A DNA stretch of 64,000 nt, taken from the NCBI GenBank assembly GCA_964460365.1, contig CAYWPL010000002.1, positions 90,349 through 154,348 on the forward strand, in the 5' to 3' direction. Shown here piece by piece: positions 1 to 46,353 of the stretch (positions are counted from its first letter, which is position 1; each line of letters starts with the position of its first letter). Source of the stretch: an uncultured Candidatus Peribacteria bacterium. GTDB taxonomy: Bacteria; Patescibacteriota; Gracilibacteria; Peribacterales; Peribacteraceae. Under the pieces are notes generated by a model. That model worked only from the letters and a program-made list of their open reading frames with translations, was not told the origin of the DNA and ran no database searches. The position numbers and the translations under genes are program-made.

Positions 1-879
1 GATCGCTTCCTGCGGGACTTTCTCCATGCATCCCTGGACGCGCTTATGGACGCGGGGTTCCGCTTCCACCGGATCGCCCGACACCGTCCCGTCCAGGATA
101 TCACCGATCCGTTGGAGTGTCTGCACGCCGGTCATGTAGAGCGTCACGGCCTCCTGCACCTCTTCAAGTGCATCGCGCTCGACCTCCGTTGACCTGCGCA
201 GCGCGTCGTTCACGCGGCCGGGGAAGTTCTGGAGGATGTCTTCCATCGCTTCGATGTCGCAACCGTAGCCTTCGGGGCTCGGCGGCAGATAGTTGGTATC
301 GAAGTAGCACACGGGCTCGGTGTCGTCGGGTGCGGATGAGGACGATGCGAATGCATCGGCTTCCTCTTGGTCCTGCAGTTTCTTGGTGCCCTCGGGCTCG
401 AAGAGCCGCGGCTCATCCCACCCCGGATCGTCATACGTCGGGTCCGTCGATCCTGTATCCAGCGCGTCGATGCGGTCGCGGAGGAACGAGAACAGGTCCG
501 TCAGGCGCACGACAGCCGTCACATTGCGTTCATCAAGCGCGCGGTTCAGTTCGGAGCGCACTTCTTCCATTTTGGCTTCAATAAGCGCCGCATCCATGCG
601 CAGACAGGCGGTCTGGTCCTGCAGGCTCTGGCTGCGGGCGAGTGCCGTCTGCGTGTTGTCCGAGGGAGCCATGATCGCCGAGAGCACGTCGCGCGACCAC
701 TCACCGATTTGATTGAGGAAGAAATTCAGGAGCATGTTGCCTTCCCACGCGTACTCGATGCCGGCGTCGGCGCGTTCCAGCACCGCCGCGACCGCGGGCG
801 TGCCGGCATATGTCTGCGCGGATGCGGGGGGTGCGAGCAGGAGCAGGATGCCGATGACCGGGGCGAGGAGACGTTTCAT
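1..879 (-). CDS. Secreted hypothetical protein, operon A gene 5 (start in window, 3' end beyond left edge)
   Basis: Absent from the ORF track because the frame is open to position 1. Manual minus-strand translation from ATG 879-877 gives MKRLLAPVIGILLLLAPPASAQTYAGTPAVAAVLERADAG... I checked all 293 codons to position 1 and found no stop. Strong GC3 bias. Its ATG overlaps the TGA of the upstream gene (ATGA at 876-879). Confidence 0.65.
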   Translation of the reverse strand, partial: MKRLLAPVIGILLLLAPPASAQTYAGTPAVAAVLERADAGIEYAWEGNMLLNFFLNQIGEWSRDVLSAIMAPSDNTQTALARSQSLQDQTACLRMDAALIEAKMEEVRSELNRALDERNVTAVVRLTDLFSFLRDRIDALDTGSTDPTYDDPGWDEPRLFEPEGTKKLQDQEEADAFASSSSAPDDTEPVCYFDTNYLPPSPEGYGCDIEAMEDILQNFPGRVNDALRRSTEVERDALEEVQEAVTLYMTGVQTLQRIGDILDGTVSGDPVEAEPRVHKRVQGCMEKVPQEAI

Positions 880-3380
880 TGGGCGGGGCATTGGGCATTG
901 ATGAGACCGTTGCCTTCGAAATCGTTGAACGGGCACATGACGGTCGGGAATTCGATTGTCGTGAAGCCCGTCAGCAGCGCCGCGGCGTTCTCGGTCATGT
1001 CGGCGAGCGCGAGCGTGGCCTGGGTGAGGTAGTCCACGTAGAGTCGAGTGCCGATGCGCGCTCCGAGCGCCGGGATGGCGGCCAGGGCGGCTTCATTCTC
1101 ATCGTCACGCGACTGGGTTTCGGCACCGATATCCAGCGAGATCGCCGGGAGTGTGCCGCCCAGACGGATGCTCTTCTGGGGGTCGAATGCGCAGAGGATC
1201 GGCAGGCCCTGCGGCGTCGAGCCCGTGCACAGCGCGTTCTCCACCTGGCGGATGACGAGAGCGGGACGATAGGCGGGAATCGCGGCGTCGGGCGGCTGGA
1301 TCTGGTGTTTCACGATGAGCCCACCCGGCTGGGGATCGGGCACGAGACACACGTCGTGCGGGGCGGTGGCGTCGCCTACGGTGTACGTGTTGCGGCCGGC
1401 GACGGCGCGGTACCGGAACGATTCTTCCAGGCACCGGTCGAAGTAGCAGACGTTGTTGCCGATCGTGTTCTCGTAGCTCACGGTCTGGTTCGGGTCGCAC
1501 GTCTCGCGGCCCAGCTGTTCGGCGGCGCGCAGCTGTCCGGCCACGCGGGAGTCAGCTTCCTTCCCGTCGGGCGGATCCATCTGATCGGCGCACGTGAGAG
1601 GCATCCAATCGGGTGCACGGTCGAAGGACAGCGCGAGCACGTCCTTCGCAAATGCAAATTGCTGGTCCAACGGGACCGTCTCGTAGCTGAACGCCGAGGG
1701 GCAGGAGCCGTAGCCGCGCTCCTGGCAGGAGGCATCCACGAAGATCTGCCAGCAGGTTTCGGCGTTCATCGGGATGCCCGTCGACGGCGAGATGGGATTG
1801 CCCTCGAAGACGCCGTCCGCGGCCATCGCTTCACACTGGGCTTTATACGCCTCGCCTTCCGTGTAGCAGCAGGCGTCGCGCTTCTGCATCAGAGTCTTTG
1901 CGTCGTCGCCCCCGCCCGGAGGCGAGTAGAGCATTGTGCCGGGGGGCTGACCGCACAGCTGCCGGGCGTGCACGAGCTCGTGGATCAGAATATAGGGGGC
2001 GGGCGTGTCAGGAGCGGTTTTGATGCGCACCTTCACCGTGCCGTCGGGCATCTTGGGTGACGTCTGGCCAGTGAGCGGCGTTCCGTCGTCGCACGTCACT
2101 TCGACGCGGCACTGCTTTATCGGATTGAAGGCCTCGGCATGCCAGTCGATATTCATGCACGCTTCGGGGCCGGCGGTCGTGATCTCCCGGGGAAGCTTGG
2201 AGGTGCAGGCCGTCAGGATGATCGTGCCCGCCTCAGGTTCCACCTCTTCTTCGCACTCGTCGGTGTTCTCGGTCGGGAGCGGGCGGCACAGATAGCCCAA
2301 ACGCGCGTAGGGTCCAGTGCAGAGGCCTCCCCCGTCCTGGGGCGGCGGCGGGTACGCTCCGCCGGGAATTGCTTCACAGTCGGTGCCGTCCTCGCAAAGC
2401 GACGGCAGCACGGGCTCCAACGCGGGATTCCAGGCGACGCCGGCATCGCCGCCGATCTCGTCCCCTTCCCGCTCCAGATAGACCCAGAGCCGGATGTCTG
2501 CATCGAGCCCGGCGCGGATGGAATCGGGAATGTTGAAGACGAGCAGTTCGCGCTGGCGCAGCGGCTCCGGGTCATCCGCCATGTCGCGTGCCGATTCGTG
2601 GATCGCCTGCAGCGCGGCCTCCACGTCCGGCCACCGCTTGAAGAGATACTGGCGCTCCGTGCCGTCGGGATCGCTGGGGTCCTCAAGTGGCGGCGCGAAC
2701 TGCGGCACGCGCTGGCCGCTCACGTAGTGGTAGCCGCCCTCCGTATAGCGCCAGACAGCGGCCACGCGCTCTTCCGGCGACAGGGCATCGAGGGCCGACA
2801 TGAGGTTTGACACGTTCTGCATCATTCCGCCGTCCTCGGGCAGATCGCGCATGCGGATGAGCGTAGCATTCGCGTCTGCATCGATGTCGCCGGCGCCGGC
2901 GCGCCAGATCCTGGCCAGCGCCCGCGCGCGGTTCTGGAGACTGTCAGGGGTATCGGTATTCACCGGAGCGTTCAGTTCGTTGCCGGCCGCGACGATCTGC
3001 AGGTCGACGGCGAAGGTCCGCGTGTCCATCTCGCGCTGCGCGAGGATCTGGATGGTCTCCTGCGCGGCGAGACAACCGCCGAAGATGTCCAGATCGGCTT
3101 CGGCCGCGTCCTCCTCGGTATCGGTCGGCAGTCCGCAGAAGAGCGGATTATTCTCCAGCGCGAGCGGGATGTCCTCCTCCGTTAGGTCCTTCCCCTCGGG
3201 CTCGTAAGAACCGAGGATGAACGCCGTCACCTCCGGGTCGATCGTCTTGGCGCCCTCATTGTCGATCAGCAGGTCGCGCCGCGTGGCATCGAGCATCCGC
3301 AGATAGAGGTCGGCTTCTGCCGCGTGGGCCGCCATCGGCAGCACGATCAGCATGCCGACGAGGAGGTGTTTAATGCGCAT
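876..3380 (-). CDS. Large Cys-rich secreted protein with one HExxH motif, operon A gene 4
   Basis: 834-aa ORF with signal-peptide-like N-terminus MRIKHLLVGMLIVLPMAAHAAEA. Motif YILIHELVHARQ. 27 Cys by my count. No other family motif recognised. The start overlaps the upstream stop by 11 nt. Confidence 0.85.
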   Translation of the reverse strand: MRIKHLLVGMLIVLPMAAHAAEADLYLRMLDATRRDLLIDNEGAKTIDPEVTAFILGSYEPEGKDLTEEDIPLALENNPLFCGLPTDTEEDAAEADLDIFGGCLAAQETIQILAQREMDTRTFAVDLQIVAAGNELNAPVNTDTPDSLQNRARALARIWRAGAGDIDADANATLIRMRDLPEDGGMMQNVSNLMSALDALSPEERVAAVWRYTEGGYHYVSGQRVPQFAPPLEDPSDPDGTERQYLFKRWPDVEAALQAIHESARDMADDPEPLRQRELLVFNIPDSIRAGLDADIRLWVYLEREGDEIGGDAGVAWNPALEPVLPSLCEDGTDCEAIPGGAYPPPPQDGGGLCTGPYARLGYLCRPLPTENTDECEEEVEPEAGTIILTACTSKLPREITTAGPEACMNIDWHAEAFNPIKQCRVEVTCDDGTPLTGQTSPKMPDGTVKVRIKTAPDTPAPYILIHELVHARQLCGQPPGTMLYSPPGGGDDAKTLMQKRDACCYTEGEAYKAQCEAMAADGVFEGNPISPSTGIPMNAETCWQIFVDASCQERGYGSCPSAFSYETVPLDQQFAFAKDVLALSFDRAPDWMPLTCADQMDPPDGKEADSRVAGQLRAAEQLGRETCDPNQTVSYENTIGNNVCYFDRCLEESFRYRAVAGRNTYTVGDATAPHDVCLVPDPQPGGLIVKHQIQPPDAAIPAYRPALVIRQVENALCTGSTPQGLPILCAFDPQKSIRLGGTLPAISLDIGAETQSRDDENEAALAAIPALGARIGTRLYVDYLTQATLALADMTENAAALLTGFTTIEFPTVMCPFNDFEGNGLINAQCPAQ

Positions 3381-4272
3381 CGTAGGTACGGAGGGAACCG
3401 CGGGCGTTGCGGATGCGGACCATGCAGGCGCTCGTCTCCGCGGCGAGTGACATGAGGTTGCGGATCTCGAGGGAGATGTCCTCCAGACAGGTGACGTTGC
3501 TGGCGAGCGGGCGCATATGGTCTGCGGCGGCGATGTAGATGAGCGTGCGGCGCATCGCCTGCTCGGCGAGGGTCAGTTCTTCCCCGATCACCAGATGTTC
3601 GCGCATCGCGCGGGCGAGGACCGGTATCACGAAGATGCTGTTATCGTCGTTGAACTCGTCTTCGTCCTTAGTCGGATACTCAAAGCTCGGGTCGCCCGGT
3701 TCAGCCTCGTAGGCGTCGAGCGCGTTTTGGTAGTAGAGGTCGCCGGCGCGGAACTGGAGCGCACAGCGGTACGTGCGCAGGAATTCCAGCAGGATCGACG
3801 GGGCTTCTTCTTCCGTAAAGGGCACGCCGCTCTTCCACGGTTCCACCAACGCGGCGATGGCCTTGAGTGGTTCTGAGGCAGGTACGAACGGCTCGGCGCG
3901 GCAGATGGCCGACGGCTGGTTCATGTGCGCCCGGATGATCGCGTCCACGGCGGCGTGGTAGAAATCGCGCCACTCTTCCACGGTCGTGCGCGCGGCCTCT
4001 TCCTCCTCCTCGTCATCCGACGAGGACGACGAATCGGCGAATTCGATCGGGAACGTGAACGGGAACGCGGATTCCTCGTAATCTTCTTCGATCGGGAAGA
4101 GATCCTCGTTCATCTCGCACGCGGGCATGTCGGTCGGCACGTCGTCCGTGGCCACCTGGGCGCGGAGGTCGGCCGAGCTCTGCAGCAGCAGGCCGACGGA
4201 CAGGACCGCACCGAGGGCGAGTCCGGAGGCGATCCAGCGTCTGCCGGCGAGGGAACGCGCGTCATTCGCCAT
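3370..4272 (-). CDS. Secreted or membrane-anchored hypothetical protein, operon A gene 3
   Basis: ORF 3370-4311. I prefer the internal ATG at 4272: MANDARSLAGRRWIASGLALGAVLSVGLLLQSSA has a charged n-region followed by an h-region. That start gives an 11-nt overlap with the upstream stop (4262-4264). Contains an acidic run SSSSSDDEEEEEAA. No family recognised. Confidence 0.75.
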   Translation of the reverse strand: MANDARSLAGRRWIASGLALGAVLSVGLLLQSSADLRAQVATDDVPTDMPACEMNEDLFPIEEDYEESAFPFTFPIEFADSSSSSDDEEEEEAARTTVEEWRDFYHAAVDAIIRAHMNQPSAICRAEPFVPASEPLKAIAALVEPWKSGVPFTEEEAPSILLEFLRTYRCALQFRAGDLYYQNALDAYEAEPGDPSFEYPTKDEDEFNDDNSIFVIPVLARAMREHLVIGEELTLAEQAMRRTLIYIAAADHMRPLASNVTCLEDISLEIRNLMSLAAETSACMVRIRNARGSLRTYDAH

Positions 4273-5179
4273 TGCACTGGGAGAGGAAGCACGGCATGCG
4301 GCCGAGTTCACCGAGCAGCGACATGGATTGCTCGATGGGCGTCAGCATGTCGTCATGGAACGCGATGAGGAATTCGTCGAAGTTGCCGGCAAACTGCAAC
4401 AGGCTGCGATACGACGCGTCGTAGAAGCCCGCCAGCAGGTACATCTGCTTCTCGCGCTCGACGAGCTGCTCGATGAGCGGCCGGCAGTTCTCGCGGACGA
4501 TCGTGTCGCTGTACGCCTCGATGTTGCGCTGCTTCTCGGCGTCATCCTCCTCGTCATCTTCAATCAGTTCGTCGTTGTCGAAATGACACTGCGAATAGGG
4601 TTTCATCTGCAGATCCATGCAGCCCGGCGTCTCGATGGGCTTGTAGTCGTCGGGGTTCTCGCCGTCGTCCAGATACGAGGCACGGACGTTTCCGCAGACC
4701 ATCTCCAGGCGGCACTTGTAGCCCCGCAGCATCTGTGCGAGGGCAGGCACGATATCCGAGGTGAGCGCGCCCCTCCGGTCCAGCTGCCCCAGACGCGGCT
4801 CGCGCGGTGACGGGTTCTCGATCTCGTTCATGCCCTCCCACTCGGTCTGCCGGTTCATCTGCAGGTCCGACCAGGTGGTGTTCTCGTAGCCGGGCGACGT
4901 GGAGCGCCAGGTATTGTCATCGGTCTTGATCCAGGCGCTGCCGTCCTCGCCGTAGCGCGTGTTGCCCTTGGGCTCATCCTTGGCGTCCGGCCGGCCGAGC
5001 AGGATCTGACGCGCGATGCGCTGCTGCTGCACGGCGGCGGCCTGCACCTGGGCAACGCAGGAGTCCGCGGCCGTCGCTTCGGGCTCGATCAGTTTCGTCG
5101 GATCGATCTCCGCGGCGCGGGATGGCGCGGATGACGCGACAAGCGTGATAAGTGCAAGGAGGGAGAGCAGGCGCTTCAT
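4262..5179 (-). CDS. Secreted hypothetical protein, operon A gene 2
   Basis: ORF 4262-5434, but the first 85 codons are Arg/His/Pro-rich and overlap the upstream gene. Internal ATG at 5179 gives MKRLLSLLALITLVASSAPSRAAE (signal peptide) and an ATGA overlap with the upstream stop (5176-5178). Product 305 aa, with an acidic EDDEEDDAEKQ run and several Cys. Confidence 0.8.
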   Translation of the reverse strand: MKRLLSLLALITLVASSAPSRAAEIDPTKLIEPEATAADSCVAQVQAAAVQQQRIARQILLGRPDAKDEPKGNTRYGEDGSAWIKTDDNTWRSTSPGYENTTWSDLQMNRQTEWEGMNEIENPSPREPRLGQLDRRGALTSDIVPALAQMLRGYKCRLEMVCGNVRASYLDDGENPDDYKPIETPGCMDLQMKPYSQCHFDNDELIEDDEEDDAEKQRNIEAYSDTIVRENCRPLIEQLVEREKQMYLLAGFYDASYRSLLQFAGNFDEFLIAFHDDMLTPIEQSMSLLGELGRMPCFLSQCNGE

Positions 5180-8100
5180 GGATTCTGGGGAATGAGCGGC
5201 GTGTCGGGCGGAAGGCCGAAGATCGGATACAGGTCCTCGGTGCGGCCGGGGTACGGATACTGCTGGCCGGTGGCGGGGTCCGTCGCGGTCTTGCCTTCTG
5301 GGGTGATGGTCAGTTCGCGCGTCATCGTGCGCAGCTCGTCGATAAGTTCGTTCTGCTGCACGTCGGTATCCGATGGCCCGATGATCTGCCAGCCGTTGCC
5401 CGCGTTGCGGCGTTCGGCGCGCATGCGACGACACGTCTCATCCGCCGGGTTGCATGTTTCGGTGCGGATGCCCACGGGCCCATACGCGTCCTCCAGCAGC
5501 AGAATCTGCGGGCGGGCCGTCAGGCGGGTGAAGATCTGGATGAGTTCGGTCTCCACGTAGCTGCACGGCTTCTTGTCGAACTTGGGGCACTCGTATCCGC
5601 GCGTCTCCTCGGACGGCTCCATGTCCTCCCAGAAACGTTTGTACGCGGCGCGCATCTTCGTGAGGATCTCAATCGCCCGGTCCATGGCCCTCTCCTGCTC
5701 GGTCGTGTCCAGCGGCGGCGGTTCCGGTAGCGAAACAGGTTCTTCGCCCTGTTTGATGGCTTCTGCCAGGCGCGGCGCCACGATGTTCTCGGCGTCGAAG
5801 GTCGGCACGGGCGGCAGATCGGGCAGAGATGTCAGCGCGTCGAGATCCTCCACTTCCTCGTCCGCCGGGGGCGGCGTGGGCAGCGTGAGTTCGATCTGTA
5901 CCACGTAAGGCACCGGCACGATCACGGCCGAACTCCCCGGGAAGAAGAAGCGCATGAGATCGAGATCGAAATGGATGTCCTCGTCGCGGGTGTTCTCGCA
6001 GAGGATCGGGAAACTGTTCCCGTCCGCCTCGCAGCTCGGTATGCCGCCCTGCAGCGAAGGGCGTCCCGGATACCATCCCTCGTAATCGAGTAGCGAGTAG
6101 ATCGACGTGGTGAAGTAATCCGAGCGGCACCAGGGCACGGCGTCTTCCCCGTCATGCACGTCCGCGAGCGCCTGCTGCACCTGGCGCACTTTGCCCTGCA
6201 GGAGCAGCCGCTTGTCACGGTTCTCAAGCCAGGCGATGTAGCGCTCCAGGTTCTGCTGCGCCCACTGGTTGATGCCGAGCAGTAGTTCGCGCTGGCGCTG
6301 GAGCAGCACACCGATATATCCCGGCAGCTCGCCGCGCAGTTCGCGATACTCGTCGATCTCGTCCGCGTATTCCAGCAGCGTCTCGATGACGTCATCCACT
6401 TCGTCAGGCACCTCCAGCCCCAGCGACTCGCGCTGGCGGCGATAGTCCTCCCAGCGCTGTGCGAGTGCTTCATACGTCAACGGAGGGCCCAGCGGAATCA
6501 CCACCGGGACCGGCACGGGCTTGAGGAGCAGAAACCTCTCCAGCAGTCCGGAGACGATGCCCAGCAGGTCGTCACGCGCTTGCAGTTGCACTTCGACGGT
6601 GCGCCACCGCGTTGCCTCTCCGCCATCCGTTACCACCGGCTGCGATGCCAGCGGCATGTCCTCCAGGCCGGGTGCCCACGCGGCGGGAAGGCGCAGTCGG
6701 ACGACCGGCGGCGAGATCAGCTTGGCCATGTCGGTCGTGAATTTCTGAATCCAGTTGGTGAAGATCCGCGCCGCGCCGGTGTCGCTGCGGATCGTGTCAT
6801 CGATCGCGCGCTGCAGATACGTTGGTGCCATCGTTCGCTCGTCGGTGTTCTGGGTGTAGGCCGTCATCCGTGCGAAATCGAGATCGAAGAACGTCGTGTG
6901 CATGATGCCGTCGTAGTCCTCCGTGAAGACCGGTTCGGACAGGAACGAAATGCCGTCGCCCAGGTTCGGATACCACAGATCGTTTTCCTCGTCGTAGCTC
7001 GGGTTGCGCGGCTGGAACGGCTTGTCGGGAACCTCGGCCCGGTAGTGGCCCACGCCTTGCTGAGAGGTTTTGAGCCCCAGCCCCGAATCGGCGAACGGGT
7101 TGCCGTCTTTTTTGGAGTACGGGAAGCGGATGACGCACTGTGGAACGACGACGGTGTCTTTCGGGTCGATTTCTTTGTACAGGCCGTAGCAGGCGACTTC
7201 CGCCGAAACACGCTTCAGCTGGTCGCGCGGCACCTGCGTGAGGCCGGCGCGCTCCGTCTCCGCCGAATAGAACCGGAAGAACGACTGGTAGCTCTGGCCG
7301 CGCGGATCCTGCTCGCACCCCGGGCCGGGACAACGGCACTCTTCGCCCTGACAGGGCATGATGCAGTTGGGGAACCCCTCCTCAGCCGTCCGGCGCGAGC
7401 AACGGAATTTTTCCACCCACACGGCGCAGCGCTGTCCGATGATCACGGCGCCCTCGGGAGGCGGGACATTGTCGCCGCCCGGTCCGCCCTTTTCCGAGGC
7501 TTTGCTGCTTGCCGCCGGGAAACTGAATGTCGAAAACGACGAACTGGGAAAATCCACCGGACCAAAGGACGATGTCGGATCCGATGTGGGCTCGAGTCCG
7601 GGAAATAACGACAGGTTCGGATCGGGGTCGGTGGTGATGGCGGTGGGGAACGACGACGGTCCGGGCGTTTGCGCCAGCAGGCTTGCCGTCATCGGGTTGC
7701 GCTGCGCGACGACGCGCGCGGGGGGTGCCTGGCGCGCGGGGGCGCGGGCGATTCCGGGCACGCCGTCATCCGGCGTGGGCTGCACTTCCGACGGCGCCTC
7801 GCCGACGATGTTGCCGTCCTTGTCGACGTAGACATCATTGAATGCCGCGCAGTCCTCGTAGGTAAATGTATTGAGCCATTCGCAGAACAGCACGCATTGC
7901 TCGGGCGTCTGTGGCCCGTCCTCCTCGTCTCCGCGGTTCGTCGCGGGGTCGCCGGCCCAGCGGCACGGTGGGTTCTCGAAGTACGGCATCGTGAAGTCTT
8001 TCGCCACGTAGCCTCCTGGCTGCCCGTCGGGTCCGTCCTCCCACACGCGGATCGTATCGTCGCCGCCGCGGCTGAACGCGCAGTCCGTCGTCAGGCCCAG

Positions 8101-8442
8101 GGCCGTCTCGGGGAACAGATATCCATCATCCAGAATGCCGCCCTGTTCAATGCGCTTCGCGAGTCCCGATCCGGGATTGCCCAGCGGCTCGCCCTCGCGT
8201 CCCGGCAGACCCGTCACTTTGGAGATGCGCCACGGCTTACCGAGTTCCTCGCCCACTTTCTGCTCCCCGGAGAGATCCCAGCCGCCGCACTGCGCGCCCT
8301 TCGCGATTGCTGCGGGGATCTCGTCCTTCACGATGGTGACAATGTCCTGATACGTTTTGGGCGGGTACAAATCCGGCGGGATCACATACGAGGGTTCCGC
8401 GTGCACGCGGATCGACGCGAGCGTCAGGAGGACGCCGAGCAA
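5176..8442 (-). CDS. Giant secreted hypothetical protein, operon A gene 1
   Basis: 1088-aa ORF with hydrophobic N-terminus LGVLLTLASIRVHA/EP. The track start is TTG 8442. The frame stays open upstream to 8541 and encodes ...AHTFRRLPRI, a proper charged n-region, but without ATG/GTG/TTG. The true start may therefore be non-canonical (CTG 8523 or ATT 8481). A roughly 110-aa Pro/Ser/Thr-rich linker follows the N-terminal domain. Many Cys. No family recognised. Confidence 0.85.
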   Translation of the reverse strand: MLGVLLTLASIRVHAEPSYVIPPDLYPPKTYQDIVTIVKDEIPAAIAKGAQCGGWDLSGEQKVGEELGKPWRISKVTGLPGREGEPLGNPGSGLAKRIEQGGILDDGYLFPETALGLTTDCAFSRGGDDTIRVWEDGPDGQPGGYVAKDFTMPYFENPPCRWAGDPATNRGDEEDGPQTPEQCVLFCEWLNTFTYEDCAAFNDVYVDKDGNIVGEAPSEVQPTPDDGVPGIARAPARQAPPARVVAQRNPMTASLLAQTPGPSSFPTAITTDPDPNLSLFPGLEPTSDPTSSFGPVDFPSSSFSTFSFPAASSKASEKGGPGGDNVPPPEGAVIIGQRCAVWVEKFRCSRRTAEEGFPNCIMPCQGEECRCPGPGCEQDPRGQSYQSFFRFYSAETERAGLTQVPRDQLKRVSAEVACYGLYKEIDPKDTVVVPQCVIRFPYSKKDGNPFADSGLGLKTSQQGVGHYRAEVPDKPFQPRNPSYDEENDLWYPNLGDGISFLSEPVFTEDYDGIMHTTFFDLDFARMTAYTQNTDERTMAPTYLQRAIDDTIRSDTGAARIFTNWIQKFTTDMAKLISPPVVRLRLPAAWAPGLEDMPLASQPVVTDGGEATRWRTVEVQLQARDDLLGIVSGLLERFLLLKPVPVPVVIPLGPPLTYEALAQRWEDYRRQRESLGLEVPDEVDDVIETLLEYADEIDEYRELRGELPGYIGVLLQRQRELLLGINQWAQQNLERYIAWLENRDKRLLLQGKVRQVQQALADVHDGEDAVPWCRSDYFTTSIYSLLDYEGWYPGRPSLQGGIPSCEADGNSFPILCENTRDEDIHFDLDLMRFFFPGSSAVIVPVPYVVQIELTLPTPPPADEEVEDLDALTSLPDLPPVPTFDAENIVAPRLAEAIKQGEEPVSLPEPPPLDTTEQERAMDRAIEILTKMRAAYKRFWEDMEPSEETRGYECPKFDKKPCSYVETELIQIFTRLTARPQILLLEDAYGPVGIRTETCNPADETCRRMRAERRNAGNGWQIIGPSDTDVQQNELIDELRTMTRELTITPEGKTATDPATGQQYPYPGRTEDLYPIFGLPPDTPLIPQNP

Positions 8443-8758
8443 GATGCGCGGGAGCCGGCGGAAGGTGTGTGCGAGGGAAATCTTCTGATTGTACCAGAAA
8501 AACGTTTCACTTACAGCTTCCAGAAGCCATTTCCCCCAGTCTTATACTTGACGGAAAAAACGCATGATGGCTTGCACATACTTTGTAACAGCAAATGTGG
8601 GCATTTCGCGGCTGGAACAAGATACTAGAAAATATTTTTTGAAATAATCCACGTACAAGTTCTTGTCCTCGTCCGCATGCCAGGTGTACAACCGTTCACG
8701 TCCAGAGACAGGTACGCACTGCTCGCGGCATCCTCTACTTCCATTCCCCCCTCGGGTT

Positions 8759-9631
8759 ATGTTCTCCTTCAATCGCGTACACATCATCGGCTATCAGACG
8801 CAGCCCCTCAGCGTCCGTTCGACGCCCGGCGGCACGAGCGTCACCGACCTCAATTTGGTCGTGCCGTACAAATTCAAAACCGAGAGCGGCGAGATGCTCG
8901 ACGGCAAAGGTTTCCACACGATTACCCTCTGGGGCCCGATGTCGGAAGTCGCCGGACGTTTCGTGAAACCTGGAAGCCAGCTCTTCATCTCTGGTCGCCT
9001 CCAGACGGACAGCTGGGAGGATGAAAAGACGGGCGAGAAGCGCACCAGGACAAAAATCGTCGGCGTCGACATGATCCTGCTCGATCCCAAAGACGGCCAG
9101 ATCGCGATCCCGGAGGGCGCCAACATGGTCTCGCAGTGCCTCAACCGCGCCGATGTCATCGGCAACGTGACGCGCGAGCCCGAGATGCGCACCACCACGA
9201 ACGGTCAGCAGGTGCTGACGCTCGGTGTGGCCACCAACGAGCGCTGGAAGGACCGCCAGAGCGGACAGGACAAGGAGCGCACCGAGTTCCACAACATCGT
9301 CGTGTGGGGCGCGCTCGCCGAAGAGGTCGCCAAGACCATCCACAAGGGCAACCGCGTCTTCGTCACCGGCCGCGTGCAGACGCGCAGCTGGGAGACGAAG
9401 GAAGGCGCCAAGCGTTACACCACCGAGATCATCGCCGAGACCGTCGCGCTGCTCGGCGCGAAGAATCCAAAAGTGACGGACAACATCCAGATGGACGGCG
9501 CCCCGCAGGCGCGCGGATCGAACCAGGACGAGTCCTTCAGCCAGGACGTGCCCGCGCGTTCCAATCCGTCGGTCGAAGTCCCGCAGATCGCCTATGCCTC
9601 CGAGATCAAGCCGGAGGATCTGCCGTTCTGA
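8759..9631 (+). CDS. ssb: Single-stranded DNA-binding protein with two tandem OB folds
   Basis: ORF 8663-9631; internal ATG 8759 gives MFSFNRVHIIGYQTQ..., a typical SSB N-terminus. A second SSB-like module starts at LNRADVIGNVTREPEMRTTTNGQQVLTLGVATNERW...HNIVVWGALAEEV...VFVTGRVQTRSWE. A disordered tail ends in the acidic tip EDLPF. Confidence 0.9.
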   Translation: MFSFNRVHIIGYQTQPLSVRSTPGGTSVTDLNLVVPYKFKTESGEMLDGKGFHTITLWGPMSEVAGRFVKPGSQLFISGRLQTDSWEDEKTGEKRTRTKIVGVDMILLDPKDGQIAIPEGANMVSQCLNRADVIGNVTREPEMRTTTNGQQVLTLGVATNERWKDRQSGQDKERTEFHNIVVWGALAEEVAKTIHKGNRVFVTGRVQTRSWETKEGAKRYTTEIIAETVALLGAKNPKVTDNIQMDGAPQARGSNQDESFSQDVPARSNPSVEVPQIAYASEIKPEDLPF

Positions 9632-14992: not shown

Positions 14993-16179
14993 CAGGCGTG
15001 GCGGAGAAGCCACCCGCCCGTCCTCCTCTTATTGCGCCGTGCGAGGCTCGCCTCTTCTGTCGAGTGCGCGGAGATGTTCAGCAGGATGCCGACGCCCGCG
15101 AGCAGCGTCATCAGCGATGACCCGCCGTAGCTGATGAACGGCAGCGTGAGGCCCGTGAGCGGAAAGATGCCGAGGTTGACCATGATGTTCACCATCGTCT
15201 GCGCTGCGATCCAGGTGGTGATGCCCGCGGCCAGCAGGAAGCCGAAGCGGTCGGGCGCATTCTGCGCGATGCGGTATCCGCGGAACACCAGGATGCCGTA
15301 CATAAAGAGGATGATGAGCAGGCGCATGAATCCGAGTTCCTCCGCCATCACCGCGAAGATCATGTCGCCTTGCACTTCCGGCAGATACCCGAACTTCTGG
15401 ATGGATTTGCCGTATCCCACGCCGAAGAATCCGCCGCTGCCGATGGAGAGCAGCGCCTGGCAGATCTGATACCCCGCCGTCTCGCAGATCTTCGTGTCTT
15501 CCGGATGCAGCAGGATCGCAAGGAACGCGACGAAGCGCGCGCGGACATACTGCTTCTGCAAAATGATCGGCAGGCCGAAGGCGCCCGCAAGCCCGCCGCC
15601 GAGGCCGAGGTGCAGGATATTCCCGCCCGCGATGTAGAACATCACGCCCGCGATGATCGAGAGTACAAGGAAGGAGCCGAGGTCCGGCTGGATGGCGACG
15701 AGGATCGTGCTGACCATCAGCAGCGATACGAACGGGATGAAGCCGTCTTTGAACGTGCCGATCAGCTGTTCGCGCTTTTGCAGCCACACCGACAGATAGA
15801 AGATGAACGTCAGCTTGAGCACCTCCGACGGCTGGAGCGAGAACGGGCCCAGGCGCAGCCAGCTGCGCGACGTGCCCCAGTTGGCGCCGAAGCCCGGGAT
15901 GAGCGTCATGATGAGCAGGACAATCGTGCACAGATACAGCGGGCGCGCGAAGCGCTCCCACACGCGGTATGGGATCGCGGCCGTCACCAACATCAACGTC
16001 ATGCCGAGCGTGACGTGAATGAACGTGCGCCACAGATAGAAGGAGTTGCTCCCGAAGCCCGTGAGCTGGAGGGTCAACTGATAGCTCTCGAAGACGCTCA
16101 CGCTCGCGATCATGGCGAGCCCGAACAGCGTGAGCACCACCGTGATGCCGAGCAGGAGAAGGTCAATGCGGCGGAACAT
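14992..16179 (-). CDS. ftsW: SEDS-family peptidoglycan polymerase (FtsW/RodA)
   Basis: 395 aa, about 10 TM segments, conserved LQPSEVLK and SYGGSS motifs, directly upstream of murG. Confidence 0.88.
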
Positions 16180-16205
16180 GGCAAGGAAGTATAGACTGCA
16201 CCGGC

Positions 16206-16649
16206 ATGTCCGTCCTCTGGATCACCGCCGGGCTTTCCTTTGCCGCTTCCTTCGCGGGGAAGCTGCTCGCCGACCGGTTCCTGCACGGGCGGTTTCCCAT
16301 TATCGGCTCGTTCGCCGGCCTGGAATACTCGCTCAACCCGGGCGTGGCGTTCAGCATCATGCTTCCTCCCGCCATTCAGATACCAGTCATCCTCGCGGCG
16401 CTGGCGCTGCTCTCCGTCGTGGCACTGCGCACGGCGAAGACGCGGCTCAACCGCACCGGTTTCGGGCTCATCATCGGGGGGGCGCTGGGCAATATCGCGG
16501 ACCGGCTCGTCGATGGAAAAGTGACGGATTTTTTCCAGGTTGGGACGTTCCCCATCTTCAACGTTGCCGACAGCTGTATCACGATCGGCGTGTGCGTTTT
16601 GCTTGCCGAAATGATTCTCCAGCGTCTCGCGGCCCGAGCGAAGCTCTGA
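16206..16649 (+). CDS. lspA: Lipoprotein signal peptidase II
   Basis: 147 aa. Motifs [32 protein letters not shown]. Confidence 0.9.
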
Positions 16650-16739
16650 GAGGGCTTGTGTGGGGCTTGCGGCAGCGCCGCGGGGGAGATGGACTTTGTC
16701 CATGTAATCCGGGCCTGTTTGCGCTACACTCGTAGCTCT

Positions 16740-18008
16740 ATGGATGTCCGCTACCGCGTAACGGGGGGAATCCCTCTTGTCGGTGACGTCACGATCGGCG
16801 GCTCGAAAAACGCGGCGCTCCCACTGATCGCGGGCGCCCTCCTCGCTGAGGGCGAGACCGTGTTCCATAACGTGCCGTGCCTGCGCGACACGGTGGCGAT
16901 GCTCAAGATTCTGGATTTCCTCGGAGCGGAGACGAGCTTCGAGAACGGTACCATGCGTATCCGTGCCGAGAAGCTCCGCAGCCAGCCCATCCCCGCCGAG
17001 TACGTTTCCTCGCTGCGCGGGTCCATCGTTCTGCTCGGTCCGCTGCTCGCGCGCTTCGGCGTCGTCGAGATGGCCTATCCCGGTGGCTGCGTGCTGGGCA
17101 AGCGCCCGGTGCAGGCGCATATCGCCGCCTTCGAGCAGATGGGCGCACAGAATATGAGCACGGATGAAGTCCTGCACCTGCAGGGCACGCTCAAGCCGGC
17201 GCACGTCGTCCTGCCGGAATTCTCCGTCACTGCCACCGAGAACGTCATCCTCGCCGCCGCGCTGTTGCCGGGCGAGACGCGCATCGACCTCGCCGCTGGC
17301 GAGCCGCACGTGCAGGACGTCGAAATGCTCGTGACGCAGATGGGCGCGGAGGTGGACGGCATCGGCTCGCATACGGTCATCGTGCGCGGCAAGAAGCCGC
17401 TCAAGGGCGTCGAGCACACCGTCATCTCCGATTATCTGGAAGCGGGCGTCATGATCCTCGCCGCCATCGTCACGCACGGCAAACTGCGTCTCCACGGCGT
17501 CGACCCCGAACACCTGCTCTCGTTCCTGGACGCGCTGCGCCGCTTCGGCTGTGTCTGGAAGTACGATGCTGCCGAGCACACTCTTCTCGTCGACGGCGAA
17601 CTGTCGTCCATCCAGGCGATGAACGTGCGCACCAATATCTTCCCGGGCTTTCCCACCGACCTCCAGGCTCCTATGGGCGTCACAATGACGCAGGCCAAGG
17701 GCGTTAGCCGCATGTTCGAGCGTCTCTACGAGGGACGGCTCGCGTACCTGTATGAACTGGAAAAAATGGGCGCGCACATCGAGGTGCTCAACGCGCATCA
17801 GGCGCTGATCATCGGACCCACGCCGCTCAAGGGACGCATCGTGGCGAGCAACGACATCCGCGCCGGCGCCGCGATGGTGCTGGCTGCTCTCTGCGCCGAA
17901 GGCGAGACGACCATCACCGATGTCCGCTACATCGAGCGGGGCTACGACCGTCTGGACGAGAAGCTGCGGGCCCTCGGGGCCAGAATGGAGCGCATTGAAG
18001 TGGCGTGA
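16740..18008 (+). CDS. murA: UDP-N-acetylglucosamine 1-carboxyvinyltransferase
   Basis: ORF from 16656; ATG 16740 gives MDVRYRVTGGIPLVGDVTIGGSKNAALPL. Active-site region PGGCVLGKRPV. Full-length MurA pattern. Confidence 0.92.
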   Translation: MDVRYRVTGGIPLVGDVTIGGSKNAALPLIAGALLAEGETVFHNVPCLRDTVAMLKILDFLGAETSFENGTMRIRAEKLRSQPIPAEYVSSLRGSIVLLGPLLARFGVVEMAYPGGCVLGKRPVQAHIAAFEQMGAQNMSTDEVLHLQGTLKPAHVVLPEFSVTATENVILAAALLPGETRIDLAAGEPHVQDVEMLVTQMGAEVDGIGSHTVIVRGKKPLKGVEHTVISDYLEAGVMILAAIVTHGKLRLHGVDPEHLLSFLDALRRFGCVWKYDAAEHTLLVDGELSSIQAMNVRTNIFPGFPTDLQAPMGVTMTQAKGVSRMFERLYEGRLAYLYELEKMGAHIEVLNAHQALIIGPTPLKGRIVASNDIRAGAAMVLAALCAEGETTITDVRYIERGYDRLDEKLRALGARMERIEVA

Positions 18009-18126
18009 GGGCAGAGGGCATTTTGAAGTAGCAGAAAACCTCGTATTGGCTACTGCCATCTGCCATCTGATCTCTTGCCGGTTCTATCTTTTCGTTTCTC
18101 CCTATCTGTTCTATCATAGCTGACGA

Positions 18127-20686: not shown

Positions 20687-20884
20687 ACCAGCTCCCTTCA
20701 AAGTAGTACTCGGACGATTACGATGGGGCGGTCTGTGCCCCCCCCCCGCTGATTTCCGCATGCGGACGCCAGGGGGGAGAGGGATGAACAAATCGTGAAG
20801 GAGCATCCGCAACTCCCGGAGGAGCCGCGTTATGTCGATATAACATGACATCGCCCGGGGCACCAAATCGTGTTTTTCCGCGTG

Positions 20885-21415
20885 TTACTTCGGCATCGGC
20901 CGGCTGTGGTTGGTGATGACGCCGTTGCTCAGAATGCCGTTGGGGATGATGACGAGCCGTCCGTCCGCGCCGCGCACGTGCGTCGTGACGATCTCGATCT
21001 TCTCCACCATGCCTTTCTGCGTCTGTGCCTCGATCTCCTCGCCGATCTTGAACGGCTTGAAGAGGAGAATCAGGATGCCGCCCGCGACGTTGCTCAGGCT
21101 GCCCTGCAACGAGAGGCCGACCGCGAGGCCCGCGGCGCCGAGAAGCGCCACGAACGAGGTCATCTGCACGCCGATCATCATCGCCACCGTGATGAGCAGC
21201 ATGATTTTCAGCACGATGGCGCTGGCGCTCTCCAGGAAACTTGCCAGCGAGCGGTCCATCCGCTGGATCTGGAAGGCTTTGCGCATGGCCTTTGTGGCGA
21301 TGCGCACCAGCCAGAAACCTATGACGAGCGTGACCAGCGCGAGCAGCAGCTGGGGCAGATACGAGAGGCTCATGGTCATGCCGAGATCGACATATTTCTG
21401 AAGCTGGAGGTTCAT
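20885..21415 (-). CDS. Short MscS-family mechanosensitive channel
   Basis: 176 aa. TM helices plus the pore-helix/beta-domain signature LLGAAGLAVGLSLQGSLSNVAGGILILLFKPFKIGEEIE...GRLVIIPNG. No C-terminal alpha-beta domain. Confidence 0.8.
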   Translation of the reverse strand: MNLQLQKYVDLGMTMSLSYLPQLLLALVTLVIGFWLVRIATKAMRKAFQIQRMDRSLASFLESASAIVLKIMLLITVAMMIGVQMTSFVALLGAAGLAVGLSLQGSLSNVAGGILILLFKPFKIGEEIEAQTQKGMVEKIEIVTTHVRGADGRLVIIPNGILSNGVITNHSRPMPK

Positions 21416-21475
21416 AGGAGAAGCAGGAAAGAATCCCGACTACTAAACAGCTCTGCCCGTCCACTGGCAAGGGCC

Positions 21476-22828
21476 TCAGAGGAACGACGTTACGGCCATC
21501 AGAACCGCCGCCGCCAGCATCACGCCCGTCGTCAGCCAGCCAGCCAGGCGCATCGGGAGCGGCAGGACATAGCGGCCCATCACCTTCTTGTCGCAGGCGA
21601 GGACCATCAGCACCACCATCAGCGGGACGGCGAGCACGCCGTTGATGACCGCGCACCAGAAGAGCGCGCGGATGGGATCGACGTGGAAGAAATTGAGCGC
21701 GAGACCGAGCAGCACCGCCGCGGTCATCACGCCGTAGAAGCCCTTGGCTTCGTGCGGCTTGCGCTCCAGTCCGACCTGCCACTGCATCGCCTCCCCTACC
21801 GCGTATGCCGCCGAACCCGAGAGCACGGGCACTGCGAGCAGGCCGGTGCCGATGATGCCGATGGCGAAACACAGCTTGGCGAACGGTCCGGCGATCGGTT
21901 CGAGCGCTTTCGCGGCGTCCGCCGCCGTCGTGATATCGGTGAGGCCGTGAACATGGAGCGTGACCGCGGCCGTGAGAATGATGAAGAACATAATGAGGTT
22001 TGAGAATCCCATGCCGATCACGGTGTCGACATCGATGCGCAGCAGTTCGCCCGTGCCCATGCGTGATCCGCCCTTGAGCGCGGGGTTGTTGTGCCGTTCT
22101 TTCTCCTCCACCTCGCCAGACGCCTGCCAGAAAAACAGGTACGGGCTGATCGTCGTGCCCATGATGGCGACGAAGCCCGTGATGTATTCCCGACTGAAGG
22201 AAAAGGACGGCGTGATGGTAGCCAGTAGCGCCTCGCCCCACGGGATCTGCACCGCGAAGATCACGGCGACGTAGGCAAAAAGCGCCAGCGTCAGCCACTT
22301 GAGGATGTTCACGTATTGCGAGTACGGCAGGAAGATCTCCAGCACCAGCGAGAGCAGGCCCATTGCCACGATGGAAGGCAGCACCGGTGCACCGGTGATC
22401 AGCTCCAGCGCGGCGCCCATCGCGCCCAGGTCCGCGCCGAGGTTGAGCACATTGGCGATGACGAGCAATCCGACCGCTCCGCGCAGCAGCCAGGCCGGCG
22501 CGTGCATGCGCAGATTGCCCGCGATGCCGTGCCCCGTCACGCAGCCGATGCGCGCGGCGATCCGCTGGATCGAGACCATCAGCGGGAACGAAAACAACGC
22601 CGTCCACAGCATGCCGAAGCCGAACTGCGCGCCCATCTGCGAGTACGTGGCGATGCCGCTCGGGTCATCGTCGGAGGCGCCGGTGATGATGCCGGGGCCG
22701 AGGCGGCCGAACATCCTGAGCAGTCGTTTGCGGCGGATGCGCTCCTTCAGGTGCGGTCCGGGCGGCGTGGCGTTGTCGGGTGCGGGAGGTATGCCCGTAG
22801 GGTACCACGGTGGGGTTTCATAATTCAT
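21476..22828 (-). CDS. NRAMP/SLC11-family transporter with non-canonical metal-site motifs
   Basis: 450 aa, polytopic. GPGIITGASDDDPSGIATYSQMGAQFGFGMLW aligns to the Nramp TM1 region; AIMGTTISPYLFFWQAS aligns to TM6. Confidence 0.85.
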   Translation of the reverse strand: MNYETPPWYPTGIPPAPDNATPPGPHLKERIRRKRLLRMFGRLGPGIITGASDDDPSGIATYSQMGAQFGFGMLWTALFSFPLMVSIQRIAARIGCVTGHGIAGNLRMHAPAWLLRGAVGLLVIANVLNLGADLGAMGAALELITGAPVLPSIVAMGLLSLVLEIFLPYSQYVNILKWLTLALFAYVAVIFAVQIPWGEALLATITPSFSFSREYITGFVAIMGTTISPYLFFWQASGEVEEKERHNNPALKGGSRMGTGELLRIDVDTVIGMGFSNLIMFFIILTAAVTLHVHGLTDITTAADAAKALEPIAGPFAKLCFAIGIIGTGLLAVPVLSGSAAYAVGEAMQWQVGLERKPHEAKGFYGVMTAAVLLGLALNFFHVDPIRALFWCAVINGVLAVPLMVVLMVLACDKKVMGRYVLPLPMRLAGWLTTGVMLAAAVLMAVTSFL

Positions 22829-24340: not shown

Positions 24341-25978
24341 ATGCGCAAACTCCTCTCGATCATTGTCGGCCTCTCCCTGCCTCTCGCCGTCCTCGCTCTC
24401 GATTACTCGGACGCGACAGGACGCTACACCGACCCGTCCTTCACGCGCAGCGAAGCCGCGGCGATCAGTGTCCTGACGAACGCGGGCGTAGTGAGCGGCA
24501 ATGACGACGGCAGCTTCCTCCCCCGCCGCACCCTCAACCGTGCGGAATTCGCCAAGATCGCCGTCCTCAGTGCCGGCATCGAGGTAAGCGTTGCCGGCAA
24601 CTGCTTCCCCGATGTCCGTAACGAATGGTTCGCCCGCTACGTCTGCACGGCTAAGAAGCGCGGGATCGTCCAGGGCAACCCAGACGGCTTGTATCATCCC
24701 GAACGCAACGTGAACTACGCCGAAGCCGTGAAGATCCTCGCGGGTCTGTACGGATACGACGTGTCCATGCAGCTGGGCGATGCCTGGTTCGCGCCTTTCC
24801 TCCGCGCCGCCGATGAACGCGGTGTGCTGCTGCCCGTCGCCCTCGATCCCGGCGCGCTCCTCACGCGCGGCCAGATGGCCCGCCTGACGGCCGCCGTCAT
24901 GGCCGAGGCCGCAGGTGAACTCGACCTCTACCGCGCGGCGGAGAACGGCGAGACGGTGGCGTCCTCGTCGTCTTCTTCCAGCAGCAGTTCGAGCATCTCA
25001 TCTTCTTCCTCGTCTTCTTCGACATCCTCGTCTTCGTCGTTTTCCTCCACTTCCACGGTCCTTGATCTGCCGGTGCGCAGCCGCTTCCTCGTCCTCGGCG
25101 AGCGGACCAAGCCGATCGCGGCCCTGACGTTCTTTGCCGACAAAGAGGCGATCTTCGTCCGCAGCGTGGAGATCAAACTGGAGCGCAAAGTCCTCTCGTT
25201 CGACACGATGTATCTGGTGGATGAGAACGGCGTGCAGATCGGCCAGGTCTCGCTGGATCGTCTCTTCGACAGCACGGACAAGACCTGGAGGGCCAGCTTC
25301 TCCGGTGGTACGTATCGCATCCCGAAGGGGACGGAGCGTCAGCTTGCCATCGAAGCGCTGCTCAAAGAGCGCGACAAGGGCGGCGGCTCGGACGAGCTCG
25401 TAAAAGTCGAAGACTTCCGCATGACGGCCCAGGGCGAGGACAGTGGCTCTAACTACAACGCCATCAAGCCCGACAGCCTTGTCTTCCCCAAGCACCAGAC
25501 GGCGCAGGGGCGCATCACCTCCGTGGTGAACGCGCTCTCGGAGACGGATTCCCTTCCGCTCGGTACCAACCAGGTCATCGGCGCCTTCACGTTCCGTGGC
25601 ACGCACGTGAGCGGTGCGGAGCTCCGCGTGGAGAACCTCGAGTTCCAGATCAGCAAGTCGTCCTCGGTGACGGTGACGAACTGGCAGCTGGGTACCGGCG
25701 AATCCTCGCTGCGCACCCCCTGCACGGTGAACGAGCTGATCGTCAGCTGTTACACGATTCCCGCCGAGATCGGCACGATCCCCAATGAGCCGCGCACGCT
25801 GCGCCTCTACGGCGATGTCGCGCTGGAGGCGGGCGCACAGGATTACTTCCTGCAGGTCAGCCTGAATCAGCCCGGCAATCCCGAAACGATCGGCGCCGTG
25901 CAGTGGACAGACGGCTCCGGCCATTTCCGCTGGACCGAGCTCTCATCGCCCGTCGCGCGGAGCGCGCGCTTCAATTAG
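24341..25978 (+). CDS. SLH-domain cell-surface (S-layer-like) protein with poly-Ser linker
   Basis: 545 aa. Signal peptide MRKLLSIIVGLSLPLAVLA. Three SLH-like repeats (..GVVSGNDDGSFLPRRTLNRAEFAKI; FPDVRNEWFARYVCTAKKRGIVQGNPDGLYHPERNVNYAEAVKIL; DAWFAPFLRAADERGVL...LTRGQMARL). A ~30-aa Ser run, then a beta-rich C-terminal domain. Confidence 0.88.
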   Translation: MRKLLSIIVGLSLPLAVLALDYSDATGRYTDPSFTRSEAAAISVLTNAGVVSGNDDGSFLPRRTLNRAEFAKIAVLSAGIEVSVAGNCFPDVRNEWFARYVCTAKKRGIVQGNPDGLYHPERNVNYAEAVKILAGLYGYDVSMQLGDAWFAPFLRAADERGVLLPVALDPGALLTRGQMARLTAAVMAEAAGELDLYRAAENGETVASSSSSSSSSSSISSSSSSSSTSSSSSFSSTSTVLDLPVRSRFLVLGERTKPIAALTFFADKEAIFVRSVEIKLERKVLSFDTMYLVDENGVQIGQVSLDRLFDSTDKTWRASFSGGTYRIPKGTERQLAIEALLKERDKGGGSDELVKVEDFRMTAQGEDSGSNYNAIKPDSLVFPKHQTAQGRITSVVNALSETDSLPLGTNQVIGAFTFRGTHVSGAELRVENLEFQISKSSSVTVTNWQLGTGESSLRTPCTVNELIVSCYTIPAEIGTIPNEPRTLRLYGDVALEAGAQDYFLQVSLNQPGNPETIGAVQWTDGSGHFRWTELSSPVARSARFN

Positions 25979-37496: not shown

Positions 37497-37509
37497 GACG
37501 CCTCAGCGC
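37490..37509. terminator. Hairpin whose stem contains both convergent stop codons
   Basis: gcgcTGAg-acgc-cTCAgcgc: an 8-bp stem. TGA of the DLH gene (37494-37496) pairs with the TCA (= TGA) of the amidase gene (37503-37505). Confidence 0.5.
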
Positions 37510-44094: not shown

Positions 44095-44258
44095 GGCGCA
44101 TAGAGTACGGGAGAGCGCGCCCTCCGGCCAGCCCGGAATACGGTTCCGCGTATGACAATTTGACGGCCAAATGTACTTCAATAGCCTGAAAAAAATAGGG
44201 GTTTTCCCAAGGTCCTCCCCTGTCCCGGGCACTTCTTTCTGCTACGATGTCCTGACGC

Positions 44259-46247: not shown

Positions 46248-46274
46248 TCGCTCCGGGAATCTGTGAGATGCATC

Positions 46275-46305
46275 AAAAAGAGCATGGCCGGGTCCGCCTC
46301 TTTTT
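46275..46305. terminator. Bidirectional terminator between uvrB and galU
   Basis: aaaaagag-catggccgggtccgc-ctcttttt: a hairpin with an A-run on one side and a T-run on the other, between the two convergent stops. Confidence 0.55.
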
Positions 46306-46353
46306 GTTCCCCGTGTCGGCCTCCTTCGCATCCATCCCGTGTTGTGGCCTGCT

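Follow-up and report, generated by a model that had tools for sequence, protein, structure and literature searches.

A five-gene cassette of Peribacteria likely to encode a membrane-tethered, disulfide-stabilised extracellular complex

Introduction

What do five overlapping genes for exported proteins build together when none of the products resembles a described family? This question is raised by an operon at the left edge of a 64,000-nucleotide (nt) stretch of DNA, here called the window, from an uncultured Candidatus Peribacteria bacterium (contig CAYWPL010000002.1, positions 90,349 to 154,348 of the forward strand), a member of the candidate phyla radiation (CPR). CPR bacteria account for a large part of bacterial diversity, and their genomes are rich in conserved hypothetical genes. 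To our knowledge, the way in which they build their envelopes and attach to partners is largely unexplained, and we know of no cultured representative of the Peribacteria.

A first interpretation of the window from its letters alone, the sequence-only reading, had proposed that the operon specifies an obligatorily co-produced extracellular complex. The comparison of related genomes supports this proposal, because stop and start codons overlap without Shine-Dalgarno sites, the cysteine counts of the products follow a parity rule, a domain has been transferred between subunits A and D, and anchors are found on C and E. We therefore consider it likely, with a probability of roughly 0.65, that the five products assemble into a single extracellular complex, which is stabilised by disulfides, held on the outer side of the cytoplasmic membrane and specific to the class Peribacteria.

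Layout and expression of the operon

The operon comprises the following features, with coordinates counted from the first letter of the window.

Gene A, 5176 to 8481, minus strand: 1088 amino acids (aa) from TTG 8442, probably 1101 aa from ATT 8481; predicted secreted, multidomain.
Gene B, 4262 to 5179, minus strand: 305 aa, predicted secreted, with 8 invariant cysteines; ATGA overlap with A.
Gene C, 3370 to 4272, minus strand: 300 aa, putative membrane tether with 5 mature cysteines; 11-nt overlap with B.
Gene D, 876 to 3380, minus strand: 834 aa, predicted secreted, with an invariant GTERQYLF motif; 11-nt overlap with C.
Gene E, 1 to 879, minus strand: first 293 of 465 codons; predicted secreted, mostly helical by composition; ATGA overlap with D.
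Probable operon promoter, 8488 to 8496, minus strand: extended -10 element TGgTACAAT, then 6 nt and the in-frame ATT 8481-8479, a leaderless geometry.

The gene order and its ATGA, 11-nt, 11-nt and ATGA overlaps, first read from the listing of open reading frames (ORFs), are the same in gene calls on three other assemblies (L001 to L003). The operon takes 13.2% of the window, which agrees with the earlier estimate of about 13 percent, and gene E indeed crosses the left edge: flanking sequence from L001 gives the complete protein of 465 aa. This gene is also the last of the operon, as an ABC-ATPase gene follows 79 nt further in the left flank of L001 and is itself followed by dnaE. The GC content of the operon is uniform with that of the surrounding sequence. 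Its five products are acidic, with isoelectric points of 4.3–4.5, and contain 1.7–3.2% cysteine.

How is such a unit transcribed and translated? A consensus scan for promoters and terminators gave no -35/-10 pair and no terminator at either operon end; the proposed promoter rests on manual comparison. The extended -10 element is conserved as TGGTATGAT in the closest relative (L007, about 2320-2345). Read from ATT 8481, gene A begins with ISLAHTFRRLPRILLGVLLTLASIRVHA, followed by EP, which is a canonical signal peptide, while a start at TTG 8442 leaves a shortened signal peptide without a charged n-region. The TTG is replaced by CTG in the same relative, whereas box, spacer and ATT are all kept. 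On these grounds gene A probably starts at ATT 8481 and not at TTG 8442.

Shine-Dalgarno-like sequences are absent upstream of all five genes, and none was seen at the roughly 18 starts inspected across this genome. Around half of these 18 starts (about nine genes) are preceded, at a distance of 6–8 nt, by a TAnnnT box, an arrangement that suggests that leaderless mRNAs are widespread in the genome; examples are found in L001 (445 and 2376) and in L023, from the same genome as the window (543, 3378, 4699 and 9270). Stop/start overlaps recur at most junctions of the cassette in 16 species-level genomes, and the junctions without overlap probably reflect start codons mis-chosen in the analysis. 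Translation of B to E would then depend on termination and reinitiation at the overlaps.

A core cassette of the class

Homologues of D and A are found exclusively in metagenome-assembled genomes of Candidatus Peregrinibacteria/Peribacteria, where every one is annotated as hypothetical. When each GTDB species was represented by one genome, 16 loci were found, all from Peribacteria or Peribacteraceae, two of them on contigs already known as L004 and L005; three more came from metagenomes, and L006 and L024/L025 were added from look-ups. Beyond the window, 21 distinct genomic or metagenomic loci keep the genes in the order A-B-C-D-E without exception, as far as the contigs reach. The frame is likewise always the same, running from GluRS, MurB and ssb on the opposite strand through A to E to dnaE and sua5, with MurA, lspA, ftsW and murG sited further upstream. 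The ABC ATPase between E and dnaE is restricted to the lineage of the window and L007; elsewhere dnaE directly follows E. The sequence-only reading had asked whether homologues are syntenic or scattered, and in all loci examined they are syntenic, in fixed order and position.

A profile hidden Markov model of A, searched against 1.84 billion cluster representatives, finds 272 clusters, 205 of them at E below 1e-30. The best 150 of the 272 are near-full-length matches almost without exception, and P0166, among the most distant A matches listed, shows the same cassette layout. No paralogue of the operon proteins was found elsewhere in the window, and no relatives occur in IMG/VR viral contigs or in PHROGs. 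Together with the invariant syntenic position, these results indicate a core feature that is present in one copy throughout the class and has been passed on vertically. The possibility of prophage or mobile-element cargo was rejected on the same viral comparisons, on the fixed chromosomal position and on the GC content that matches the surroundings.

The genes are subject to purifying selection and nevertheless change quickly. Compared with the closest relative, the ratios of nonsynonymous to synonymous substitution (dN/dS) are 0.16 for A, 0.06 for B, 0.18 for C, 0.19 for D and 0.10 for E; those of the neighbouring ABC ATPase and dnaE are 0.03. Values of 0.06–0.19 argue that all five genes are real and under purifying selection. 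Across genomes the operon proteins share 27–45% identity and their neighbours mostly about 55–78%, so that the cassette evolves several times faster than the genes next to it.

A core position of this kind brings in a different explanation. The five proteins might form a scaffold for the biogenesis and remodelling of the envelope or cell wall, placed between the membrane and an S-layer anchored by SLH domains, with an HExxH module acting on peptidoglycan or envelope proteins. We regard this as unlikely but as a serious rival, because the cassette is a single-copy core feature in a mur/fts neighbourhood: it lies fixed beside murB, with ftsW, murG, murA and lspA just upstream. The operon, however, diverges from ssb, and there is no co-transcription with the mur genes.

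Five families without described relatives

The sequence-only reading recognised no described family or system, and this has withstood profile searches of all five proteins (Pfam, NCBIfam, PHROGs and PDB) and a Foldseek search with A. None of the five has a significant match in Pfam, NCBIfam or PHROGs. When every A, D and E orthologue is compared with Pfam, the only matches are to PF18895, in E of two genomes, and weakly to peptidases, in D. Against the PDB, neither sequence searches with A and D nor profile searches with the five families and the HExxH module give anything below E = 0.1. Profile-profile comparison shows no paralogy among the five families either; a doubtful match between the N-termini of D and E (86%, 18% identity) was not used.

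An AlphaFold2 model of A, built from 31 homologues, reaches a mean predicted local distance difference test score (pLDDT) of 71 and a predicted TM-score (pTM) of 0.63, with 659 residues at 70 or above. It predicts a beta-rich N-terminal domain that is split by a disordered linker, a ferredoxin-like alpha/beta unit at about residues 560–650, a long helical hairpin and a mixed alpha/beta C-terminal region.

Disordered Pro/Ser/Thr-rich (PST) linker of A, residues 227–324, 7471 to 7764, minus strand: pLDDT below 50; lineage-specific insertion.
Predicted long helical hairpin of A, residues 654–764, 6151 to 6483, minus strand: AlphaFold2, pLDDT about 75–90, with one 66-residue helix (681–746).

Searched with Foldseek, the model finds best matches at E = 1.4 in the PDB and 0.32 in BFVD, and these cover only ferredoxin-like fragments of about 60 residues. 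For D, an AlphaFold model from four sequences has a pLDDT of 38 and is unusable; a repeat, word-indexed search for homologues gave the same four proteins again.

The low-complexity segments once taken as hallmarks of the cassette have a different status. The PST linker in A (about 100 aa) and the acidic runs in B and C do exist, but they are lineage-specific insertions that are absent from most orthologues and so are not characteristic; the linker, for example, is missing from 11 of 14 aligned A proteins. Insertions are tolerated by both A and D, among them the PST linker, a collagen-like stretch in one A homologue and Cys-rich inserts in D, and Cys-rich inserts also occur in E of other genomes. 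The extra-long A homologues carry no informative extra domains, just a collagen-like repeat. As large, fast-evolving and insertion-tolerant proteins, A and D are probably the exposed subunits. Both sets of results count against a biogenesis scaffold: the proteins do not resemble any known peptidoglycan enzyme or component of the divisome or elongasome, and A and D behave as exposed proteins typically do, evolving fast and taking up insertions of PST, collagen-like and Cys-knot type.

Export and membrane anchoring

Signal-peptide-like N-termini had been noted on the products, and they are present on all five as well as on 14–17 orthologues per family, with signal peptides and lipoboxes judged by eye and with a simple heuristic. 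Every orthologue of each family starts with a positively charged n-region and a hydrophobic core, followed by an AxA-like site. Internal transmembrane segments are absent from products A to E.

What, then, holds such proteins on the cell? In eight of 15 C orthologues the N-terminus contains a lipobox, L-[AST]-[GAS]-C. C of the window has in its place a long hydrophobic N-terminal segment of 21 residues (12–32), which may act as an uncleaved signal anchor. In two of the 17 E orthologues (L008 and L009), where C is without a lipobox, E ends in a two-helix domain that matches the Pfam family T4SS_pilin (PF18895, E = 4.9e-9); this domain is absent from E of the window, from the other 15 orthologues and from elsewhere in the loci.

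PF18895 hairpin, L008 11117 to 11428 and L009 7398 to 7709: C-terminal putative anchor of a 687-aa secreted protein, not a free-standing small pilin.

With a lipobox, a long N-terminal segment or an E-terminal hairpin depending on the lineage, the mode of membrane attachment would differ between lineages. The occurrence of PF18895 as a C-terminal hairpin may also bear on how this domain family is used in the CPR.

The hairpin allows another interpretation, in which the cassette supplies what lies outside the cell, be it pilus base, tip or adhesin, in a type IV secretion system (T4SS) of Patescibacteria or in the VirB2-like pilin filaments of that system. Pilins of the VirB2-like kind are common in Patescibacteria and in some cases essential, and no T4SS adhesin is known there (Microb Genom 2025, PMC12102498). 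The pilin domain of E is, however, confined to two of 17 E orthologues, and the hairpin could equally be a borrowed anchor in genomes with no lipobox on C. The flanks also speak against a conjugation-type T4SS (MPF-FATA): precomputed Pfam annotation within 10 kb in L001, L004, L005, L024 and L025 gives housekeeping genes only, and no annotated locus has a VirB4, VirB6 or coupling protein (VirD4) gene within this distance. A part in a T4SS is quite improbable.

Attachment to the membrane and not to the wall would also suit the biogenesis scaffold discussed above, as would the presence of separate SLH surface proteins in the genome and of type IV pili, to which the literature assigns cell contact.

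Cysteine parity suggests a disulfide between C and D

The cysteines of the mature proteins were counted after the signal peptide, with the boundary set by alignment column.

A: even in 14 of 14 (22, 24, 26 or 46 cysteines).
B: even in 15 of 15 (8 or 10).
C: odd in 15 of 15 (always 5).
D: odd in 17 of 17 (15, 21, 23, 25, 27, 29 or 39).
E: even in 17 of 17 (8 to 26).

All 78 proteins obey this rule. Among the cytoplasmic neighbours both odd and even counts occur (for DnaE, 9 odd and 6 even; for MurB, 4 odd and 6 even). Fixed parity means that cysteines come and go two at a time, which would be expected if every one of them took part in a disulfide outside the cell. The simplest reading of the odd counts in C and D would be a disulfide between these two subunits, by which D hangs from the membrane tether; Cys52 is the candidate for the unpaired residue of C. 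Earlier the products had been called Cys-rich; at 1.7–3.2% they are only moderately so, but what cysteines they have are nearly all conserved.

Most E orthologues, though not E of the window, contain a Cys-rich insert of about 60–90 aa with a repeated C-x-x-D-x-x-C-like spacing (alignment A6, columns about 470–560), and D of L017 carries a 90-aa CC-rich insert. The parity rule is kept by these inserts.

A mobile HExxH module found in D or A

The one HExxH motif noted in the sequence-only reading is located in D, within a Cys-rich module, and it is not universally conserved among orthologues.

HExxH module in D, residues 398–564, 1689 to 2189, minus strand: Cys-rich; HELVH at residues 467–471, window 1968–1982.

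The module measures about 130–180 aa with about 12 cysteines and is embedded in the 834-aa D protein. Ten intact copies share the invariant H, E and H and a Glu 37 residues downstream (alignment A8). HExxH is intact in 12 of the 15 D orthologues that have the module, and additionally in a copy borne by A of L022; among the 17 D orthologues the motif has decayed in four, and one more is without the module. Most genomes have the module, of roughly 170 aa, in D, but in L005 and L022 it lies inside A, and their D proteins are without it. The A-borne copy matches D of the window at 1698–2111 (tblastn, E = 2.6e-11). This transfer between A and D argues that the two are neighbours in one structure.

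Is the module a peptidase? Its matches to Peptidase_M76 (4e-5) and Peptidase_M91 (7e-4) are weak, occur in a minority of members and fall below the gathering scores; it also matches the minigluzincin projannalysin weakly, and its best PDB profile match has E = 1.4. These similarities hint at a small metallopeptidase-like domain. The module would be mobile and dispensable. Any peptidase activity would be accessory, since the motif is decayed or missing in some genomes. An HExxH module working on peptidoglycan or envelope proteins, as a biogenesis scaffold would have it, sits badly with the loss of the motif in four of 17 genomes and of the whole module in one more.

The peptidase-like module would also suit an operon of independent secreted proteins such as enzymes, toxins or nutrient binders, which are co-regulated but form no complex. 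This explanation does not account for the way in which C and D complement each other perfectly in cysteine parity, for a domain that has passed between A and D, for the translational coupling and for a gene order that is strict across about 70% sequence divergence. As the proteins in addition match no toxin, immunity or hydrolase family, we rate it as very improbable, slightly more so than a role in a T4SS.

A model of assembly and its possible role

How might the five proteins come together in a membrane-tethered complex? Transcription would start from the promoter that abuts gene A, in leaderless geometry, and ribosomes finishing one gene would re-initiate on the next, so that the five proteins would be made together in fixed proportion. 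After export all cysteines would be oxidised. A, B and E would pair theirs internally, while C and D would each retain one unpaired cysteine and join through an intermolecular disulfide. C, as a lipoprotein or a signal-anchored protein, would keep the assembly on the membrane, and E would add a VirB2-like two-helix anchor in one lineage. A and D, which share the mobile HExxH module, would lie outermost in a single membrane-tethered hetero-oligomer.

Several considerations weigh against the complex as drawn here. The contacts among the five proteins are deduced from sequence comparison, the signal peptide and lipobox calls are by-eye predictions, and the leaderless ATT start proposed for A is unusual. 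The structural view is limited to the A model (pLDDT 71), with D at a pLDDT of 38. The parity could reflect a free thiol that serves as metal ligand or catalytic residue, independently in C and D. Moreover, the murB/ftsW/murG/murA neighbourhood and the strict single-copy conservation across the class fit a housekeeping envelope role at least equally well.

As to what the complex is for, we tentatively favour a fixed apparatus on the cell surface that makes contact with other cells or with a host, although we rate this role as less likely than not. It is favoured by the fast-evolving, insertion-tolerant large subunits, by the presumed symbiotic lifestyle of the class and by earlier remarks on extracellular Cys-containing proteins. 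Its boldest version, a five-subunit envelope machine of a kind not seen before, stitched by disulfides onto a lipoprotein and serving the reduced-genome cells of the Peribacteria as a universal, probably essential organ for engaging partners, with all folds new, is unlikely.

A cassette of conserved hypothetical genes in a CPR genome is not startling in itself. The value of this one is that it is compact, universal in its class and open to testable structural predictions. If it were an organ of contact or of the envelope for the class, it would mark the lineage and add a new type to the surface machines of bacteria. Beyond this locus, cysteine parity may serve as a general and inexpensive predictor of intersubunit disulfides in uncultured organisms.

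Neighbouring genes and other features of the window

Three further features stand close to the operon or to the question of its role.

SSB, divergent from the operon, window 8663 to 9631, plus strand: about 290 aa, two tandem SSB/OB-fold domains (precomputed Pfam).
Two-ABC-domain ATPase, L001 13979 to 15436, left of the window: 485 aa, inserted between E and dnaE.
Separate SLH protein, window 24341 to 25978, plus strand: 545 aa, two SLH domains (E = 6e-21).

The tandem-domain arrangement of SSB is kept in all related genomes. By the SLH match, the organism has predicted SLH-type, wall-anchored surface proteins apart from the operon.

Elsewhere in the window, four long minus-strand ORFs of 629–848 aa have no Pfam match at E <= 1e-5 (16113-18059, 20721-22607, 44181-46331 and 52308-54851). 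Some of them overlap long ORFs on the opposite strand, so they are either further orphans or the true genes lie on the other strand. An 811-aa protein at 37503-39938 (minus strand) combines Amidase_2 and SpoIID domains in a large peptidoglycan-hydrolase-type architecture and adjoins a GT4 glycosyltransferase and a TPR protein.

Comparison with known systems

Can the cassette be placed among the surface systems of bacteria? Type IV pili and pseudopili were rejected on the basis of the N-termini, which are of type I (AxA) or lipobox kind and not class III prepilin, and of the flanks, where pilus assembly genes are absent. Sortase-anchored proteins do not fit, since a pattern search of all orthologues gives a single chance LPxTG, in the PST tail of D of L022, that is not followed by a transmembrane segment, and C-terminal transmembrane segments are lacking. 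An S-layer or SLH protein was set aside because the five families have no SLH or wall-binding Pfam match. A polymorphic toxin/immunity cassette was likewise discarded, because searches for toxin and immunity families came back empty and the cassette keeps a stable architecture and occurs throughout the class in synteny. All five families are orphans, the one subunit with a usable model matches no fold, and no type of system can be assigned; judged by these searches, the cassette is outside the known kinds of system. We found no description of the five-gene cassette in the literature.

Other Cys-containing proteins of the same organisms come closest in biology. Anantharaman et al. (2016, PMC4736985) described Peribacteria extracellular proteins of about 1,655 aa with about 7% cysteine, among them a 14-gene cluster, and with strain variation, for which attachment was proposed. 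They resemble the present five in being Sec-exported, cysteine-containing and without functional annotation; the present proteins differ by their 1.7–3.2% cysteine and by forming a single-copy cassette at a fixed core position. In the parts of the main text that were searched, the cassette is not singled out.

A second likeness concerns the VirB2/TrbC-like T4SS pilins (PF18895), which share with E of two genomes the two-helix membrane hairpin. Unlike in these pilins, the hairpin is missing from 15 of 17 E proteins, the rest of E is dissimilar, and there is no ATPase or channel gene nearby. The HExxH module, in turn, recalls minimal zinc peptidases, namely M76/Atp23, M91/NleD-like proteins and minigluzincins (projannalysin, 4jix), in its HExxH within a helix, the later Glu and its small size. 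In contrast to these, the module of D is disulfide-rich, sits inside a large extracellular protein, matches at sub-threshold scores and is decayed in four lineages.

The nearest parallel in overall plan is offered by the lipoprotein-tethered complexes of monoderm bacteria, in which soluble exported proteins are kept on the membrane surface by a small partner with a lipid anchor. The Peribacteria cassette has no sequence or fold relationship to these complexes, and where it would depart from their plan is in the covalent disulfide tether that we infer here.

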